Source: Candidatus Moraniibacteriota bacterium (GTDB taxonomy: Bacteria; Patescibacteriota; Minisyncoccia; Moranbacterales; UBA2206). Taken from it: 64,000 bases of DNA. Shown one piece after another: positions 966 through 21,513 of this stretch. Each line of letters opens with the position of its first letter. The stretch's first letter is position 1. Location: the NCBI GenBank assembly GCA_003483065.1, contig DMWY01000018.1, positions 8,160 to 72,159 of the forward strand, written 5' to 3'. The notes beneath the pieces are model-generated. The model did no database searches. It saw only the letters and a program-made list of their open reading frames with translations, and was not told where the DNA came from. Position numbers and translations under genes: made by a program.

Positions 966-2864
966 TCAACCTTCTACCCTATTCCCTCCCACAATCGAAC
1001 TATCTTCTGTGAGATTAGTATTTTTTGCCTCATATTCTCCCTTGATATCCTCTCCAGTGAAAAGATCCTTGGCAAATATATTTGTTTTTTCCAAAAGCCC
1101 GACTTCTCTGCCAACTTGATCCGGCGATGGAGTTATCTTTACCTGAAAAGCCACCTCGGGCGAAGGCAAAAGAAGCCCGGTGCCTGATTTCATATTTCCA
1201 ATTGTCCAAACCATTTCATTAGTTCTAGAATTATAATTCAAATTTGCACCCTCTGGAAAAATTTTTCCAGTCATCTGCGCATTAGTCGGGAGAGTCGCGA
1301 CAACCTTAGCGCCAGAAACATCATTAGAAATATTCAATGCTTTCCAATGAATTGTATAGGTTGTCTCTTGGCCAACTTTTGGTGGAATTGGACCAAAATT
1401 TGGAATGCTCTTGTCAGCATAATATCCCTTGACACTCACCGCCACCTTTGAGTTAACTTTCATATTAATCTCATTGCTGGAAATTATTTTGTTCATAGAA
1501 ATTGGCGTTGGCACATCCGGACTGTCAATTTTCGCCACACTATGAATGATAAAATTTTTGTCTTTTTCTTCTCCTACTGGAAAAGTATTGGAAACTTTAA
1601 CAGTAAAATTCAACATCCCGCTTTGATTAGCGCCCAAATTGACCAACTCGGATATATCCGAAGCTTTCCAAGTAATTATCTTTTTATTTATGTCAAAACT
1701 TCCATTTTTCAATCTTAGCGATGAATAATCCAGTAGCGCGCTATCTATTTCTTCAGTAATGATAACGTCGCGGAGCCCCACATTACCATTGTTTTTATAG
1801 GCAATTTCAAATTCCAAAGTATCGCCCGCATTCACAACAAGATTATCTTTTTTATTCACTCTTTGCGCTATTGTCAACGGAGAAAAAATCATTTTCGTCT
1901 CCGCGCTTTCACTGTTGTATGCCACAAATTCATTTTGATTAGACACTCCAATCTCAGCCGAAACCGTTTTGATATTATCTCTCTCACCTTCCAACTTTCC
2001 GCTTACGACTATTTTTCCACTTTGCCCGGCTGAAAGATTCCCAATGTCCCAAGTGTTATTATCAGTGGAGGTTTTCGGACTAGCCGAAGAAAAAGTGAAT
2101 TGATCCGGATATTTTATTTTTATCACCAAACCATCTATTGTTTCCCCACCATCATTTCGATAATTTATCTGGTAGTCCACCGCGTCGCCACTTGAAGCAT
2201 TTTGTGGAGCCAATACTTCCAAAGTAATCGGGGCAGAATTAACCGTCACACCTAATTGATAATTAGCCTGAAATTGGCTAGAATAGCCGGCCGGATTATA
2301 TGACATTGAAGCCTTGAGATAGATGAGAGCTCCTTTTGGACTATAGGCTTTTCCGTTTAAAACAATTTTTCCTTGAGTTTTGCCTTTGATTGTTCCAATG
2401 TTGAAACTTCCGGAAGTTAGATTGTCAGACTTGAAATTTGGATTATTTTCCGGCTTGAAATTTTCCGGATAATTTATTTTTATAACTGCATTGTTTATAG
2501 TCAGCCGATTGTCATTTTTATAATTTATTTCATAAGTCAAAAGTTTTCCACTGTTTACTTGCATTGGGCCGGAAATTTCAATTGTAGCATTGCCCGATTG
2601 AAAAAGCATTTGCCGAACTAGCATAAACACCGCCATCAAAATAATTATCCCAATGACAATTGCACCAGCAATCACGCCTTTTTTGATAGCCTTTTTTTCA
2701 GCCTTATCCAATCCGGTTTTTTTTGCCCACAAATCACTCTCGCCTTTTTTCATTTCTCCTGTGTCCTTGGCAAGCGACGGATCATACTTACTAATCTCAT
2801 GATCCGACAAATTCTCCGGCGCATCTTTTTTGTATAAATTATTCTTAATATCTTGAAGTGACAT
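966..2864 (-). CDS. Membrane-anchored cell-surface repeat protein (DUF11/CARDB-like beta-sandwich repeats)
   Basis: 632 aa with an N-terminal TM helix (IAGAIVIGIIILMAVFML). Three or more roughly 110-aa repeats carry recurring motifs (YEINYKNDNRLTINNAVIKINYPENF / VDYQINYRNDGGETIDGLVIKIKYPDQF / LEFEIAYKNNGNVGLRDVIITEEID). Confidence 0.6.
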   Translation of the reverse strand: MSLQDIKNNLYKKDAPENLSDHEISKYDPSLAKDTGEMKKGESDLWAKKTGLDKAEKKAIKKGVIAGAIVIGIIILMAVFMLVRQMLFQSGNATIEISGPMQVNSGKLLTYEINYKNDNRLTINNAVIKINYPENFKPENNPNFKSDNLTSGSFNIGTIKGKTQGKIVLNGKAYSPKGALIYLKASMSYNPAGYSSQFQANYQLGVTVNSAPITLEVLAPQNASSGDAVDYQINYRNDGGETIDGLVIKIKYPDQFTFSSASPKTSTDNNTWDIGNLSAGQSGKIVVSGKLEGERDNIKTVSAEIGVSNQNEFVAYNSESAETKMIFSPLTIAQRVNKKDNLVVNAGDTLEFEIAYKNNGNVGLRDVIITEEIDSALLDYSSLRLKNGSFDINKKIITWKASDISELVNLGANQSGMLNFTVKVSNTFPVGEEKDKNFIIHSVAKIDSPDVPTPISMNKIISSNEINMKVNSKVAVSVKGYYADKSIPNFGPIPPKVGQETTYTIHWKALNISNDVSGAKVVATLPTNAQMTGKIFPEGANLNYNSRTNEMVWTIGNMKSGTGLLLPSPEVAFQVKITPSPDQVGREVGLLEKTNIFAKDLFTGEDIKGEYEAKNTNLTEDSSIVGGNRVEG

Positions 2865-2990
2865 AGATTTATCTTTATTTTTTATACTACTATAATACTA
2901 GATTTCTTGATTTTTAACAATACAATCCTCATCTCTCTAAAGTTGAACTTTTTTGCATTTTATATTTTACATTTTAATTTCAGCCTTGCG

Positions 2991-3187
2991 ACGGCGACGA
3001 TAAAAATTGAAGTTTACGAACGTTAAGAATTTACTCATTCTGTGCCTAAAGGGAGTTAGTAAATTTAGTGAGTAAACTGAAAATTTTTCGTCGTAGGAGC
3101 TCGGCTGAGAGTTCTTTTTGTTACTTTTTCTTGCGGAAAGAAAAAGTAAGGCTAAGTTTTTTAGAAAAAGAAAAATGGCGAGGAGCC
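2991..3187 (+). repeat. Structured intergenic repeat family R200, copy 1 (divergent left arm)
   Basis: Shares the conserved core cgttaagaatttactcat...ttagtaaatttag and the second hairpin ttgttactttttcttgcggaaagaaaaagtaag...ggcgaggag with the copies at 27377 and 37232. Its outer arms (cgacgataaaaattgaagttt / aaactgaaaatttttcgtcg) differ in sequence but remain complementary to each other. Confidence 0.7.
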
Positions 3188-3921
3188 TAATTCGTTATCC
3201 ACCTCACCGCTTCTCGCACAATAATTTTCAAATTATTCAAATTATTCAAATTCTTTTTTTCCAATTTTATCTTGCCAAGATTTTCCATTTTATTTTCCAG
3301 CACAATCCGAATGAATTTCACCCCTTCATCATTTATTCTGATTTTTTTTGTCTCTTGTTTGGCACAGTTTGAACAAATTATTCCGCCCCTCTCCGCACTG
3401 AAATAATTTTCTCCAGAAATTAGTTTGCCGGCGCAAACAGCACATTTTTTGGCCTCTTGTTTGTAGCCTAAATTTTGCAATAATTTAAAGATAAAACCAA
3501 GAGTATAAATATCAAATTTCAAAATATCCTTTTCGGCTTTGCCAGCCTCATCATTCATCATCAATAGATATTCCAATAAAAGTTGGAAAGTTTTTTCATC
3601 CTTTTCTTCCTGCGTCATCAAACGATTGAAAATTTTCATCACACCAAAAACTTTCTCCAGTGCAAAAATATTTTCTTTGATTGCCAAAAAATTTTCCATC
3701 GGGATTACGCCCGTGATATTACCTCTCCCCTTGCCCTTAGCCAAAAAAATTTCACACTGCGTTATAGATTCCAAATTGCCCGCCAATTTTGCATTGGGCT
3801 TTTTGACCCCAATTGCCCGCGCCAAAATCCGCCCGGCTTCTCGAGTGTAAACCACATAAACACGGTCAGTTTCGCCCGTGTCAATCTTATTTAGCACAAT
3901 CGCATTATATTTATATTCCAT
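3187..3921 (-). CDS. recO: DNA repair protein RecO
   Basis: N-terminal OB-fold region (MEYKYNAIVLNKIDTGETDRVYVVYTRE) and C-terminal zinc finger (CAVCAGK...GIICSNC). The ORF track starts 4 codons upstream at an ATG that lies inside the TIR of the adjacent MITE-like repeat. The MEYK start fits RecO N-termini better. Confidence 0.8.
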   Translation of the reverse strand: MEYKYNAIVLNKIDTGETDRVYVVYTREAGRILARAIGVKKPNAKLAGNLESITQCEIFLAKGKGRGNITGVIPMENFLAIKENIFALEKVFGVMKIFNRLMTQEEKDEKTFQLLLEYLLMMNDEAGKAEKDILKFDIYTLGFIFKLLQNLGYKQEAKKCAVCAGKLISGENYFSAERGGIICSNCAKQETKKIRINDEGVKFIRIVLENKMENLGKIKLEKKNLNNLNNLKIIVREAVRWITN

Positions 3922-17813: not shown

Positions 17814-18602
17814 CTAAAACAAACCCCCTAGCCAATTCATTATCCTTGCAAAAAATCCAACTCTTTCACACTCGCCATCAACAAGATTGTATCCGCCCTT
17901 GCAAACATACTCACATTTTGGTTCGTTTCCCTCGGGAACACTACAAGATTCAACCAATTCTTTCTTAGTGTAATAAAATACTTTTTCATCATCTTTTGGG
18001 CATAGTTCAGAATTTTTTGGCATTTCTCCAATGCAAGGAACTGTACTAATTTTTGAATCGACAGGCAAACCGATAAGTTCATTGTTTGAATTTTCGTTCC
18101 CCTTTGAATTATCTTGATTTTTAGAATTTTTATTCTGAGTTTGGCTATTGGCATTATTGCAATCGCGTGGCCAAGGCATTTTACACAAACCACTAAAATC
18201 CTCCATGCAATCCGCGAATGCTATCTTTGCGGTACAAAAATCTTTTTCATTAGAAATTTTATTATTACCAAACAGAAAGGCTCCTTGCTTATTATCACAC
18301 TCTTCATATTTAGCTAAGACTCTTTGAGAATAATCCCAACATTCATCTTCTTTTAAGGCACACCCTTCTAAGCATCCTCCTTTCACATAACCCCCTTCGC
18401 TGCTAGGACAAGAAACTTTACATTTATGCTCTAAATCAAGGCACTTATTAGCTTCTTCGGCAGCACAATCATGCATTTTATTAATAAATTCAACACCCGA
18501 GCCCGGAACAGCAGCAACAGTATAGAATGGTGAAAATAAAATAAAAAACGAAAAAAATATTTTTATCACTTTAATTTTTATCATATTATTTAGCTTGATC
18601 AA
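17814..18602 (-). CDS. Secreted cysteine-rich protein
   Basis: N-terminal signal peptide (KIFFSFFILFSPFYTVAAVPG), more than 20 Cys and a low-complexity N/Q/S linker. Confidence 0.5.
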   Translation of the reverse strand: MIKLNNMIKIKVIKIFFSFFILFSPFYTVAAVPGSGVEFINKMHDCAAEEANKCLDLEHKCKVSCPSSEGGYVKGGCLEGCALKEDECWDYSQRVLAKYEECDNKQGAFLFGNNKISNEKDFCTAKIAFADCMEDFSGLCKMPWPRDCNNANSQTQNKNSKNQDNSKGNENSNNELIGLPVDSKISTVPCIGEMPKNSELCPKDDEKVFYYTKKELVESCSVPEGNEPKCEYVCKGGYNLVDGECERVGFFARIMNWLGGLF

Positions 18603-19725
18603 TTTTTTTCTGTCCCTCGTTATATGCCTCCGCTATTTGATCTTCTATGCTTTTGTGCCTTTCATCATATTTATCACTGACATATTTTTGACATTCATCA
18701 GAGACTTCATTTCTTAAACGTATGCCAAGAGAAATATTGGTGCTTTCATTGCCAAGCTTGAGCGTACAAGAACTATGACTATTTGTCACTGAAATTTGGC
18801 TCATACTATTGGCATTTACCTTATTTATAGCGCAAGTAGCTTCCGACATTTTATTCATAACATTATTGAGCTCTTCTGAACTTCTCGCTGAATAATAAAC
18901 TCCGCCACCATTTTGGGAAATATTTTTGAGTTGACTTTCCGCTGTTCCGCCAACATTAAAACCGATGACATTGGTTATCAATTTTATATTATTACCGTTT
19001 AATTCTTTCGCTTTAGAAACTGGATTGCCACCACAAGTTTCTTCGCCATCACTAATTAGCAGGACTGAATTTTGATATTGATCTCCTGGATATTTCGCCA
19101 AAATATCACTAGCTTTTTGCAAAGAATCAGCTATTGGTGTCCAGCCAGTCGCTTGTAAAAGGGAAACTTTTGAAGTTATCACATCTAGCTTGATTTTATC
19201 CAACCAATAAATTTCTTCTATGCCGGCGCAAGAAACAGCTTTGTCGCTAGCACTATTACTTCCTTTGTGACCATAAGCAATAATGGAAACATTCACCTCT
19301 TCATTTAAATTTTTCACAAAATTCAAAGCCGCTTCCTTAGCAATTTCAATTTTAGATTTTCCACCAATTTTTGGTGCCATAGAACCAGAAGAGTCCAGAA
19401 TTAAAACTAAATTTTTCTTTTTGTTTGTATTATTTTTATTATCGCAAGTCGCTGTGTCCACCTTTCCATAACAATCCTCATATGTTTTTCCGTATTTGGA
19501 AATAAGCGCATCGTACTCAGCGTCACATTTAGTGTTATTAGAAAGATCTTGATTCTCCGCAGAAGCCGTATTTGTATCTGCCACCGGAGCTGTATTTTTT
19601 GCACTATTTATCTCAGGAGAAGTTTCGCTAGTCGTCTTTTGTTCTACAGTTGAACTATTTTTAGCTCCACAACCAGAAAAAATAATTACCGACGTTGCAA
19701 GTATTAGAAATAACATTTTTTTCAT
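18586..19725 (-). CDS. Lipoprotein with von Willebrand factor A (vWA) domain
   Basis: Lipobox LILATSVIIFSGC. vWA MIDAS motif LVLILDSSGSMAPKIGGKSKIEIAKEA. Confidence 0.7.
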   Translation of the reverse strand: MKKMLFLILATSVIIFSGCGAKNSSTVEQKTTSETSPEINSAKNTAPVADTNTASAENQDLSNNTKCDAEYDALISKYGKTYEDCYGKVDTATCDNKNNTNKKKNLVLILDSSGSMAPKIGGKSKIEIAKEAALNFVKNLNEEVNVSIIAYGHKGSNSASDKAVSCAGIEEIYWLDKIKLDVITSKVSLLQATGWTPIADSLQKASDILAKYPGDQYQNSVLLISDGEETCGGNPVSKAKELNGNNIKLITNVIGFNVGGTAESQLKNISQNGGGVYYSARSSEELNNVMNKMSEATCAINKVNANSMSQISVTNSHSSCTLKLGNESTNISLGIRLRNEVSDECQKYVSDKYDERHKSIEDQIAEAYNEGQKKIDQAK

Positions 19726-19767
19726 ATTTTTGTTTTTATCTTATAAAATAAAATTTTACTTTCTTAT

Positions 19768-19848
19768 TATACCATACACTTCCTCACCGGCCGGAAACTT
19801 TTTCGGTGGATTTCACAGGGGCCGTGTTTTTTGAGGGCGTCCATGTTT
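19768..19848 (-). repeat. Duplicated copy of the rnhB 3' end (encodes MDALKKHGPCEIHRKSFRPVRKCMV*), directly downstream of fic
   Basis: About 76 of 81 nt are identical to 20831..20911, which is the genuine rnhB C-terminus. Confidence 0.8.
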
Positions 19849-20771
19849 TATTTTCTATTCAAAATATCAAAACCACTAGTCACTGCATCACAGATGAAAT
19901 TTTCCAGTTGAGTGAAATCATTTTTGAGTTGCGCTGCCCGAAGATAGGCATAATATAATCGTTTGTTTTCTTGTTTTATCACGGCTGGAGCAATATTGCT
20001 CTTTAGAAACATTGCCACTAAAATCAATCTTCCAATTCGTCCGTTGCCATCAGAAAATGGATGGATTTGCTCAAATCTGGCGTGAATATCGGAAGCATGA
20101 CTAATTATATCTTTTGGTTTTTTATTTAAATCTACAAAAAGACTTTCCATTAATTTTGTAATCTTGAGATAATTCGCCGTTGGCACATTTGAGCCAACAA
20201 TTCGCACTCCGTGACGACGATAAATTCCAGCATCGTCTCTAATTCCATTCATTAGAATACTATGCAATTTCAAAACCAACGCCTCATCTATTTTTTTTAT
20301 ATTCTCTAATTGTCTAAAAAGATATTTCAAAGCCGTTTGATGATTTTTAACCTCAAATTGTTCCACTAAACTTTTGTCTGGTATTGTTCTGTTATTAAAC
20401 ATAATGTCAGCAGTTTCATCCTCCGACAAAGTTGACCCTTCTATTTTGTTGGAATTATAGGTAAGGGAAAGCATAAATTGATCACGGATGTCTGGATTTT
20501 TCGAAATAGTTCTCAGAATATTTTTATGCCTTGCTGATTCTTTGATAATCAATTCTTTTTTGGCCAATAAAACGGTTCCGGGAATTGTTTTTTGCCCAGT
20601 ATATTCAAGATACATCGCATCGATAGAATCTTGTTGTTTTTTTCTTGGCTTGGATTTTCCATTCCACCAATTATTGAGTGCCACAAAAGAAACGCCTATT
20701 TTAGCCGCCATTTTGGTCTGAGTGAGACCTGATAAATCCTGGATGATTTTTAGCTTATCTTTCGTATTCAT
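19848..20771 (-). CDS. fic: Fic/DOC family protein with N-terminal HTH
   Basis: Fic motif HPFSDGNGRIGRL (HPFx[DE]GNGR). N-terminal HTH (LSGLTQTKMAAKIGVSFVALNNWWNG). Flanked by roughly 80-bp direct repeats. Confidence 0.85.
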   Translation of the reverse strand: MNTKDKLKIIQDLSGLTQTKMAAKIGVSFVALNNWWNGKSKPRKKQQDSIDAMYLEYTGQKTIPGTVLLAKKELIIKESARHKNILRTISKNPDIRDQFMLSLTYNSNKIEGSTLSEDETADIMFNNRTIPDKSLVEQFEVKNHQTALKYLFRQLENIKKIDEALVLKLHSILMNGIRDDAGIYRRHGVRIVGSNVPTANYLKITKLMESLFVDLNKKPKDIISHASDIHARFEQIHPFSDGNGRIGRLILVAMFLKSNIAPAVIKQENKRLYYAYLRAAQLKNDFTQLENFICDAVTSGFDILNRK

Positions 20772-20829
20772 AAAGCTATTATACTAAACTTTATAAAGTT
20801 TGTCAATATTATAAGTTTTTATAAAGTTT

Positions 20830-21513
20830 CTATACCATACACTTCCTCACTGGTCGGAAACTTTTGCGGTGGATTTCGCAGGGGCCGTGTTTTTTGAGAG
20901 CGTCCATATGTATTTTTGTTCCATAGCCTTTATGCTGAGCAAAATTATATTCAGGATAAATTTTGTGCATTTCTTCCATCATGCGGTCACGCGTCACCTT
21001 GGCATAAATCGAAGCGGCGGAAATTGATTTGATCAGTTTATCCCCACTCACAATTGCTCTTTGCTCAAAAGAAAAGTTGGGAATTTTTTTGTTGCCGTCT
21101 AAAAGAATTATTAATTTAGAATTATCAAAATCTTGAATTTTAGTTTTCAATTGTGAAACCGCACTTTTCATCGCGAGAAAAGAAGCTTCCAAGATATTCA
21201 CCCGATCAATCGTCCGATGATCACAAATTCCCACTCCCACATGAAAATTCTCCCCTATAAAATCAAACAGGCTTTCTCTCTGTTTTTCCGAGAGCATTTT
21301 GGAATCGCGGATAAGATTGAATTTTTCCAAATCCTTCTCGCCCTTAGGGAGAGGATGTCGTGTACTCACGACAGGAGAGGGAACACGCAAAGCTACCGCA
21401 CACGCCACAACAGGCCCAGCCAGTGGTCCTCTTCCCACCTCATCAATCCCGATGATAATTTCATATCCTTCGGCGCTTAATTTTTCCTCTAACTCAAATG
21501 TTGACTTTATCAT
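20830..21513 (-). CDS. rnhB: Ribonuclease HII
   Basis: IGIDEVGRGPLAGPVVACAV...DSK RNase HII motifs. Carries the in-frame palindromic insertion at 21333..21381. Confidence 0.9.
   Translation of the reverse strand: MIKSTFELEEKLSAEGYEIIIGIDEVGRGPLAGPVVACAVALRVPSPVVSTRHPLPKGEKDLEKFNLIRDSKMLSEKQRESLFDFIGENFHVGVGICDHRTIDRVNILEASFLAMKSAVSQLKTKIQDFDNSKLIILLDGNKKIPNFSFEQRAIVSGDKLIKSISAASIYAKVTRDRMMEEMHKIYPEYNFAQHKGYGTKIHMDALKKHGPCEIHRKSFRPVRKCMV
21333..21381 (+). repeat. In-frame palindromic insertion element (PIE) copy B, inside rnhB
   Basis: ccttctcgcccttagggagagg atgtcgtgtactcacgacag gagaggg. Inner hairpin gtcgtg/cacgac is compensatory relative to copies C and D. Encodes RVPSPVVSTRHPLPKGE. Confidence 0.75.

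Follow-up and report, generated by a model that had tools for sequence, protein, structure and literature searches.

The stretch of DNA analysed here, called the window below, comprises 64,000 nucleotides of contig DMWY01000018.1 from the Candidatus Moraniibacteriota bacterium assembly GCA_003483065.1. It comes from a groundwater genome (the window genome) of low GC content (36.6%), and an identical 75-kb scaffold is present within the Rifle metagenome set. Relatives are annotated as Candidatus Moranbacteria, a lineage of the candidate phyla radiation (CPR). On the minus strand the genes rnhB, fic, a vWA lipoprotein gene, an open reading frame (ORF) of 262 aa and argS follow each other in this order. 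The subject of this work is a small cassette that consists of the fic gene with its control region and that lies between two direct copies of the rnhB 3' end (Table 1; positions in the 64-kb window numbering).

Table 1. Features of the rnhB-fic locus, in window numbering.
Feature	Position	Strand	Basis
rnhB, RNase HII, 227 aa, intact, target gene	20830..21513	minus	Pfam RNase_HII 5.9e-32; NCBIfam ribonuclease HII 1.7e-67
Repeat copy A, last 25 codons of functional rnhB and TAG stop	20830..20907	minus	repeat comparison
Inserted cassette, 985 nt, GC 33%	19845..20829	minus	empty-site comparison with L042, L025, L040, L024
Cassette control region	20772..20829	minus	promoter match; alignment of three species
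O1, operator-like site AAACTTTATAAAAAC	20815-20829	minus	sequence
-35 element TTGACA	20801-20806	minus	promoter match
O2, perfect 16-nt palindrome AAACTTTATAAAGTTT	20786-20801	minus	lies in the -35/-10 spacer
-10 element TATAAT	20778-20783	minus	promoter match
fic, 307 aa, XRE-type HTH and Fic domain	19848..20771	minus	Pfam Fic 4.8e-19, HTH_3 3e-5
Repeat copy B, orphan rnhB end, 25 codons and TAA	19767..19844	minus	runs on into the native downstream flank
Native downstream flank, 41-nt intergenic stretch and vWA gene (18586-19725)	18586..19766	minus	Pfam VWA 1e-14; collinear with L042 after the rnhB stop

Each copy of the repeat is 78 nt long and holds 25 codons (MDALKKHGPCEIHRKSFRPVRKCMV) followed by a stop codon, and the start-to-start offset between the copies is 1063 nt. 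Copies A and B differ by five internal mismatches and by the third base of the stop codon (TAG in A, TAA in B). All of these differences in the window genome fall on codon position 3 and are synonymous. Copy B begins 3 nt past the fic stop codon and is in frame with fic. The initial annotation had described 80-bp direct repeats with 5 mismatches, an orphan 25-codon copy of the RNase HII C-terminus directly after fic, and a 920-bp segment between the repeats that contains only the HTH-Fic gene. The orphan and the number of internal mismatches were borne out. The direct repeat is real as well, but its limits have to be narrowed to 78 nt, the four extra bases being non-homologous. Likewise fic is indeed the only gene between the copies, but the segment measures 985 nt, since the promoter region is part of it.

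Within the 64-kb window a 43-nt core of the repeat is present at two places only, against 0 predicted from shuffled sequences. Several independent assemblies of the same organism show the same arrangement, identical in each, and therefore the locus is not an assembly artefact. One could suspect a chance repeat or an artefact because of the AT-rich context and because some short contigs break at the locus. With 0 matches expected, and with the same structure in several independent assemblies and in four species (see below), the probability of this explanation is practically nil. Two independent short contigs (L002 and L007) both end at window position 20764, which is 8 nt into fic. These assemblies were probably broken by the near-invariant control region that co-occurring species have in common. 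A terminator-like hairpin with a T-run lies antisense to the rnhB end (20861-20884, plus strand), and an equivalent is found in copy B. In view of the variable third codon positions, the repeat is unlikely to hold a conserved RNA structure.

A single HTH-Fic gene behind a consensus promoter

The cassette begins directly after the rnhB stop codon, at the first operator-like site, and ends 3 nt past the fic stop codon. Its sigma-70 promoter (TTGACA-17-TATAAT) matches the consensus at 12/12 positions, and the distance from the -10 element to the fic ATG is 6 nt, a leaderless-type layout. The control region of 58 nt is highly conserved, with 2/58 positions variable when the three species are aligned. 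The helix-turn-helix (HTH) domain of the Fic protein may autoregulate the gene by binding to the palindromes.

The active-site motif HPFSDGNGRIGR of the Fic protein is located at residue 237 and fits HxFx(D/E)GNGRxxR. The same chain carries an N-terminal inhibitory motif, SNKIEG, at residue 107, which fits (S/T)xxxE(G/N); in PDB matches it is aligned with class II Fic and FICD chains of known structure. Given the active-site motif and the inhibitory motif upstream of it, the fic product is a predicted self-inhibited class II AMPylase. PADLOC matched the protein to PDC-S04 (7.8e-44) and SoFic (1.2e-32). The NCBIfam SoFic equivalog model gave 32 bits against a cut-off of 550, and the mob_myst_B score was also far below its cut-off. 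Proteins of the PDC-S04/SoFic type are listed as single-gene phage-defence candidates, and in the literature on PDC-S04 the candidate is only listed. The Fic protein may have a role in defence or addiction. The cassette is a single ORF and has no separate antitoxin gene, so it falls outside the definition of a type II toxin-antitoxin system; the 25-aa orphan lacks the antitoxin motif SxxxE(G/N). A pattern scan of the viral contigs in IMG/VR returned no Fic relative, and all Fic matches among the PLSDB plasmids were at or below 36% identity.

Empty sites in related genomes

A degenerate DNA pattern for the peptide HGPCEIHRKSFRPV was run on metagenomes and found 35 loci. Each of them had a single pattern match, always at an rnhB end. 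The initial annotation had considered that the repeat might be a common terminator-type sequence present at many loci, and this is not the case. At five loci the synteny with dnaE is that of the window genome, but fic is missing. As L024 and L028 are the same in sequence, these loci stand for four genomes without the cassette (fic-, as opposed to fic+ for genomes that carry it). In L042 the order is dnaE, rnhB with a TAA stop, and the vWA gene, and both the intergenic stretch and the vWA gene are nearly identical to the flank that follows copy B in the window. This is the uninterrupted rnhB followed by vWA for which the initial annotation had suggested to look. In the other empty sites (L025, L040, L024/L028) rnhB is directly followed by argS. 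Since relatives have an uninterrupted rnhB and a downstream flank that matches the flank after copy B, the insertion is confirmed: the 985-nt segment is an insertion that leaves rnhB intact.

The same order of rnhB, copy A, spacer, fic and copy B was found in three more species, namely L013 (identical to L054, UBA2206), L015 (identical to L060, GCA_049303905.1) and L055 (UBA4824). In all three the 1063-nt spacing and both junctions are identical to those of the window genome. The identical junctions in the fic+ genomes suggest that the rnhB junction arose once and does not stem from independent de novo insertions. Even RNase HII proteins whose overall identity to the window protein is just ~40% (L019-L053) keep the peptide HGPCEIHRKSFRPV. 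With a C-terminal motif so extremely conserved, the rnhB end is a good landing pad across species.

The region downstream of the rnhB end is variable in its own right. The vWA gene and the 262-aa ORF form a pair (17814-19725) that represents a separate indel between the rnhB end and argS. The pair is present in the window genome, L015 and L042; it is absent, with argS directly next, in L013, L055, L025, L040 and L024. In view of this indel the rnhB-argS interval is a small variable hotspot. The argS gene is itself a mosaic. When L025 (3666-5396) is compared with L055 (5041-6660), the first ~45 residues and the 3' part show 78-90% DNA similarity, while the centre is unrelated. The proteins share 45% identity overall, although the dnaE proteins of the two genomes are 97.5% identical. 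This suggests recombination breakpoints inside the essential argS gene.

The same cassette at other loci

Fic homologues of ~307 aa with 56-93% identity number in the thousands, roughly 6,600 in all, and were found in CPR groups, Nitrospirota, Omnitrophota and a Gammaproteobacteria metagenome-assembled genome (MAG). The operator/promoter layout recurs at most of the other loci, other phyla included, with sequence variants in some. Long direct repeats bracket the cassette in 6/15 distinct contexts, and the targets differ; the contexts with repeats elsewhere include Yonathbacteria, other Moranbacteria and a Gammaproteobacteria MAG. Next to the 78 nt at rnhB, there are 37 nt at the end of a convergent HypF-like gene (L056; 2 mismatches, both synonymous), 68 nt that hold the last 21 codons and the stop of a convergent glycosyltransferase (GT4) gene (L061; one synonymous mismatch), 43 nt in L063 and 44 nt in L069. 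In L081 an outer 39-nt repeat is combined with a 96-nt repeat that takes in the cassette's own promoter. The duplications at these other loci thus range from 37 to 96 nt and vary in their orientation to the target gene. In L056 the last five codons of the target gene are replaced and not regenerated. The insertion in L061 has an empty site of its own: in L075 (GW2011_GWA1_44_13) the glycosyltransferase end and its flank equal the orphan copy at 77/78 positions. As a control, segments of 924 nt were placed at random in the same loci; 228 placements gave 3 hits, 2 of them at or beside a real fic cassette and 1 at an unrelated repeat.

The cassette has no terminal repeats of its own. A Nitrospirota homologue behind rpoC (L016) lacks a flanking repeat, and since the same holds for six other contexts, the duplication is not obligatory. 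In the repeat-free context L083 the cassette lies within 6 nt of the next gene, and from the tight fit at such repeat-free contexts the mobile unit can be delimited exactly as the piece from the first operator to the stop codon.

Several of these neighbourhoods hold further rearrangements. In L081 a second copy of the operator and promoter follows fic (2347-2493 and 3453-3595; 96 nt, 97% identity) and is nested inside the 39-nt repeat. It could have been left behind by a tandem cassette or by a circular-permuted integration. In L061 a further stretch of ~1.5 kb with a 386-aa ORF (2589-3749) lies between the orphan glycosyltransferase end and an epimerase gene. The empty site L075 lacks this stretch, which therefore represents another insertion at this point. 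An additional, unrelated Fic gene, an RVT_1 reverse transcriptase and two tandem RelB-YafQ pairs were seen at L067/L068 (4184-5083), L080 (1387-2286) and L075 (1788-2958). These neighbourhoods of Fic homologues and empty sites look like small defence or addiction gene clusters.

Search for a recombinase

The initial annotation had seen in the repeats the signature of a site-specific insertion, typical of integrative elements and gene cassettes that insert into gene termini. It was right in that the insertion keeps the rnhB end intact, but the integrase and att mechanism implied by it is not supported, given the negative search for a recombinase nearby and the varied targets elsewhere. As the annotation had noted, there is no integrase within the repeats, where the Fic ORF stands alone. 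No cognate enzyme was found in the cassette or in the 6 kb to each side of it. A scan of the 20 largest unannotated ORFs at 1-44 kb of the window was negative too, all 20 encoding housekeeping or surface proteins.

A site-specific integration would involve an element, or the remnant of one, with an attP that mimics the rnhB 3' end, and a tyrosine or serine recombinase encoded elsewhere or lost. The regenerated 3' end of the target, the identical junctions in four genomes and the patchy distribution of the cassette would all be in line with such an event. However, besides the negative recombinase search, the cassette offers no additional sequence outside the operator and the stop codon. It is bounded by the first operator on one side and by the position 3 nt past the fic stop on the other, and hence there is no room for an att or attC site. 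At other loci unrelated targets are duplicated, over 37-96 nt and in either orientation, so that no single att core is reused, and the replacement of the last 5 codons in L056 does not fit either. We consider site-specific integration unlikely.

An old cassette and a young orphan

For the history of the cassette, four fic+ genomes (the window genome, L013, L015, L055) and four fic- genomes (L042, L025, L040, L024) were compared. The 4-fold sites of dnaE group the window genome (fic+) with L013 (fic+) and L042 (fic-), L055 (fic+) with L025 (fic-), and L040 with L024 (both fic-), next to L015 (fic+). The fic tree pairs the genomes differently, with the window genome next to L013 and L015 next to L055. 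The distribution of the cassette is patchy and incongruent with dnaE. The trees of rnhB and dnaE conflict as well, and this conflict, the vWA indel and the argS mosaic together mark the neighbourhood as recombinogenic.

Among the four fic+ genomes the fic genes diverge at 20-35% of their 4-fold sites. The two repeat copies give a different picture. Pooled over the same genomes, all 28 nucleotide differences between A and B in codons 5-25 are synonymous, against 0 non-synonymous ones, and L055 has a 1-nt deletion in addition. If B had been made once and had then drifted, ~2/3 of the A/B differences should be non-synonymous. A model of in situ duplication and neutral decay yields P = 0.004 for the window genome, 4e-5 for L013 and 0.003 for L015, and duplication in place followed by neutral decay of the orphan is rejected on the synonymous-only differences. 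Set against the divergence of fic at 4-fold sites, these differences tell us that the cassettes are old and the orphans young. Gene conversion from A to B within one genome is not supported either, as B differs from A at up to 16 positions, all synonymous beyond the first four codons.

Every non-synonymous change in B falls in these first 4 codons (MDTL, MDMF, IDMF). The altered 5' edge of B is shared by L015 and L055, whose fic genes are also mutually closest. All four fic+ genomes have the same 3' part of A (GTG AGG AAG ... TAG), which appears to be linked to the cassette. The 3' parts of B are diverse and match alleles of fic- genomes: B of L015 is of the L042 type, and B of L055 is close to the L025 type. 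Most simply, A and B can be read as two alleles of the rnhB end, both functional and distinct from each other.

A selected micro-ORF is the main rival explanation for the conserved orphan. There would have been one ancient insertion, inherited vertically and lost precisely several times, and the orphan would have been kept because it functions. It could do so as a 25-aa peptide, made by re-initiation at TAA-AAC-ATG, or as a C-terminal extension of Fic produced by read-through, and it might be a decoy or partner derived from RNase HII. The orphan ORF is intact and in frame with fic in 3/4 genomes, the 28:0 ratio in codons 5-25 is compatible with selection on it, and fic and the flanking genes have diverged to a comparable degree. 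However, the L055 orphan has lost its ATG (now ATT) and carries the 1-nt deletion, no ribosome-binding site precedes the orphan ATG, and B does not form one lineage by its 3' haplotypes, which correspond to alleles found in different fic- genomes. An extension of Fic is at odds with the homologues, since 120/120 among the matches listed are ~307 aa long and no extended forms occur. At other loci the orphans are the ends of unrelated proteins, lie upstream of fic and on the other strand, and still show synonymous changes only. The selected micro-ORF is thus weakened by the decay in L055 and by the unrelated, oppositely oriented orphans, and we regard vertical inheritance with a functional orphan as decidedly unlikely.

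As a further alternative, each lineage could have acquired the cassette de novo by a staggered-break or target-duplicating process, with a repeat that plays no later role. Insertion of this kind was the original idea for restriction-modification (RM) systems (PMC2853133). The long duplications of variable length at several unrelated loci would suit such a process. Against it stand the four lineages with exactly the same two rnhB junctions. Moreover, the up to 16 differences between A and B, synonymous outside the first four codons of B, are unlike those expected of copies that start out identical and then drift. Such repeated insertion is improbable.

Proposed homology-guided loss and re-integration

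The reading that we favour, with a probability of roughly 0.6, is that of a recombinase-free HTH-Fic cassette that was first inserted with a long target duplication and was then repeatedly lost and re-integrated at the rnhB end through homology of the repeat. The cassette would have entered the rnhB 3' end by 'insertion with long target duplication', the complete end (copy A) being kept and a second copy (B) being placed behind the cassette. Repeated loss and re-acquisition among related Moranbacteria would have followed, with recombination within the conserved 78-nt rnhB end. Two routes are conceivable for this step. An excised circle could integrate by a Campbell-type single crossover inside the 78-nt homology, or a linear fragment could integrate by two crossovers, with copy B as its sole right-hand homology. 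Both routes would give the same product. As the downstream genes differ among these genomes, B may often be the only arm available. The inner halves of the repeats (the 3' part of A and the 5' edge of B) would travel with the cassette, while the outer halves, with the rest of B, would be the recipient's own rnhB end, only recently orphaned. Recombination between A and B would in turn remove the cassette scarlessly and leave rnhB intact. From the allele patterns we infer that re-integration is guided by homology, be it RecA-type or other.

Several points weigh against this proposal. Neither an excision product nor a circular junction was found. One contig, L004 (ERZ5996431 NODE_123560, 1.36 kb), was tried as an excision product and rejected. 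It has an rnhB identical to that of the window genome, an A/B-hybrid end and argS directly downstream. Its tail is identical to the flank of the fic- locus L040, and a 35-nt exact run is shared with copy A. At 1197-1357 a window-type rnhB is joined to this L040-type flank inside the conserved rnhB end. The contig is more likely a chimera, assembled through the shared 35-nt run, or else a real recombinant between species. For RecA-mediated integration, arms of 37-80 nt would be short, and the junctions offer at most 2-6 nt of microhomology for the event that first made the duplication. No repeat flanks the cassette in 9/15 contexts. Four fic+ and four fic- genomes from a recombining neighbourhood leave the history of gain and loss ambiguous, and the 28:0 pattern could also stem from selection on the orphan peptide.

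It is also conceivable that the cassette is an autonomous mobile element of one gene, in which HTH-Fic itself, bound to the palindromic operators at the left edge, or host factors that it recruits, direct the insertion into conserved gene ends with a duplication of 37-96 nt. We hold this to be very improbable. If true, transposition-like movement would take place by a new mechanism, which could account for the insertions with long target duplication of RM and other defence genes as well.

Defence and toxin genes turn over fast, often without visible mobility machinery, and their movement is poorly understood. The rnhB locus, from CPR bacteria that are thought to depend on DNA uptake, is a very clean and compact example of such movement: a single gene on 985 nt, exactly bounded, with empty sites known, and present in several lineages. 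Under the proposed homology-guided re-integration, the duplicated end of a conserved gene could act as a portable homology arm through which the cassette is lost scarlessly and integrated again and again in different species. With a cassette of this size, the idea lends itself to a direct test.

Comparison with known systems

In the literature searched we found nothing relevant on Fic cassettes with flanking repeats, and the only named precedent was the 'insertion with long target duplication' of RM units, itself still without a mechanism. The protein has the Fic motif and the inhibitory motif of class II Fic AMPylases. It hits the PDC-S04 and SoFic models of PADLOC but stays far below the NCBIfam cut-offs for SoFic and mob_myst_B. 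Its Fic domain goes together with an XRE-type HTH, and HTH and Fic are also combined in the 'mobile mystery protein A/B' pairs of TIGRFAM. Unlike in the 'mobile mystery protein A/B' pairs, the HTH is fused here and not encoded by a separate gene.

Integrase islands sit in the 3' ends of tRNA, tmRNA or protein genes (e.g. SCCmec at rlmH). The Fic insertion is similar in that it hits the 3' end of a conserved gene, leaves that gene intact and is flanked by direct repeats derived from the target. However, the element is only 985 nt long, has neither an integrase nor a fixed att core, and its duplication varies from locus to locus. It also differs from integron cassettes, as it has no attC (3 nt separate the stop codon from the repeat) and carries its own 12/12 promoter, integron cassettes being promoterless. 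In competent bacteria, flanking homologous recombination underlies the Campbell-type insertion-duplication and the 'minimal mobile elements' of Neisseria. These share with our proposal the movement of a recombinase-free cassette by host recombination, and a circle crossover likewise duplicates a piece of the target. The homology at the Fic cassettes is however limited to 37-80 nt, and the end of a conserved gene is duplicated instead of whole flanking genes.

The closest likeness is to the RM units without mobility genes for which 'insertion with long target duplication' was reported (Furuta, Abe & Kobayashi 2010, PMC2853133); for the term as applied to RM gene units, Nobusato et al. 2000 is cited there. 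In those cases direct repeats of more than 30 bp and of variable length are present once at the related empty site and often overlap gene 3' ends. Most are from naturally competent species, and the mechanism is unknown (PMC2853133). The criteria of Furuta et al. 2010 were repeats >30 bp, a single copy at an empty site with aligned flanks, no mobility genes and an insert of <20 kb. The Fic locus has repeats of 78 nt, likewise above 30 bp, and the repeat is found once at the empty sites L042, L025, L040 and L024, with a second locus in L075 versus L061. The 985-nt insert contains no transposase, integrase or phage gene, and its neighbours are housekeeping genes. There are clear differences as well. 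The host here is a CPR bacterium, and the cargo is a single HTH-Fic gene and not a nuclease-containing RM system. The idea of a break-induced process put forward for RM units is not easily transferred, because a Fic AMPylase is no nuclease. Unlike in RM units, the repeat copies at rnhB appear to be two functional alleles that differ, and the cassette is far older than the orphan. These two features imply repeated homology-guided re-integration, which is not described for RM units. The rnhB locus shows that the long-target-duplication phenomenon is not tied to a nuclease cargo.

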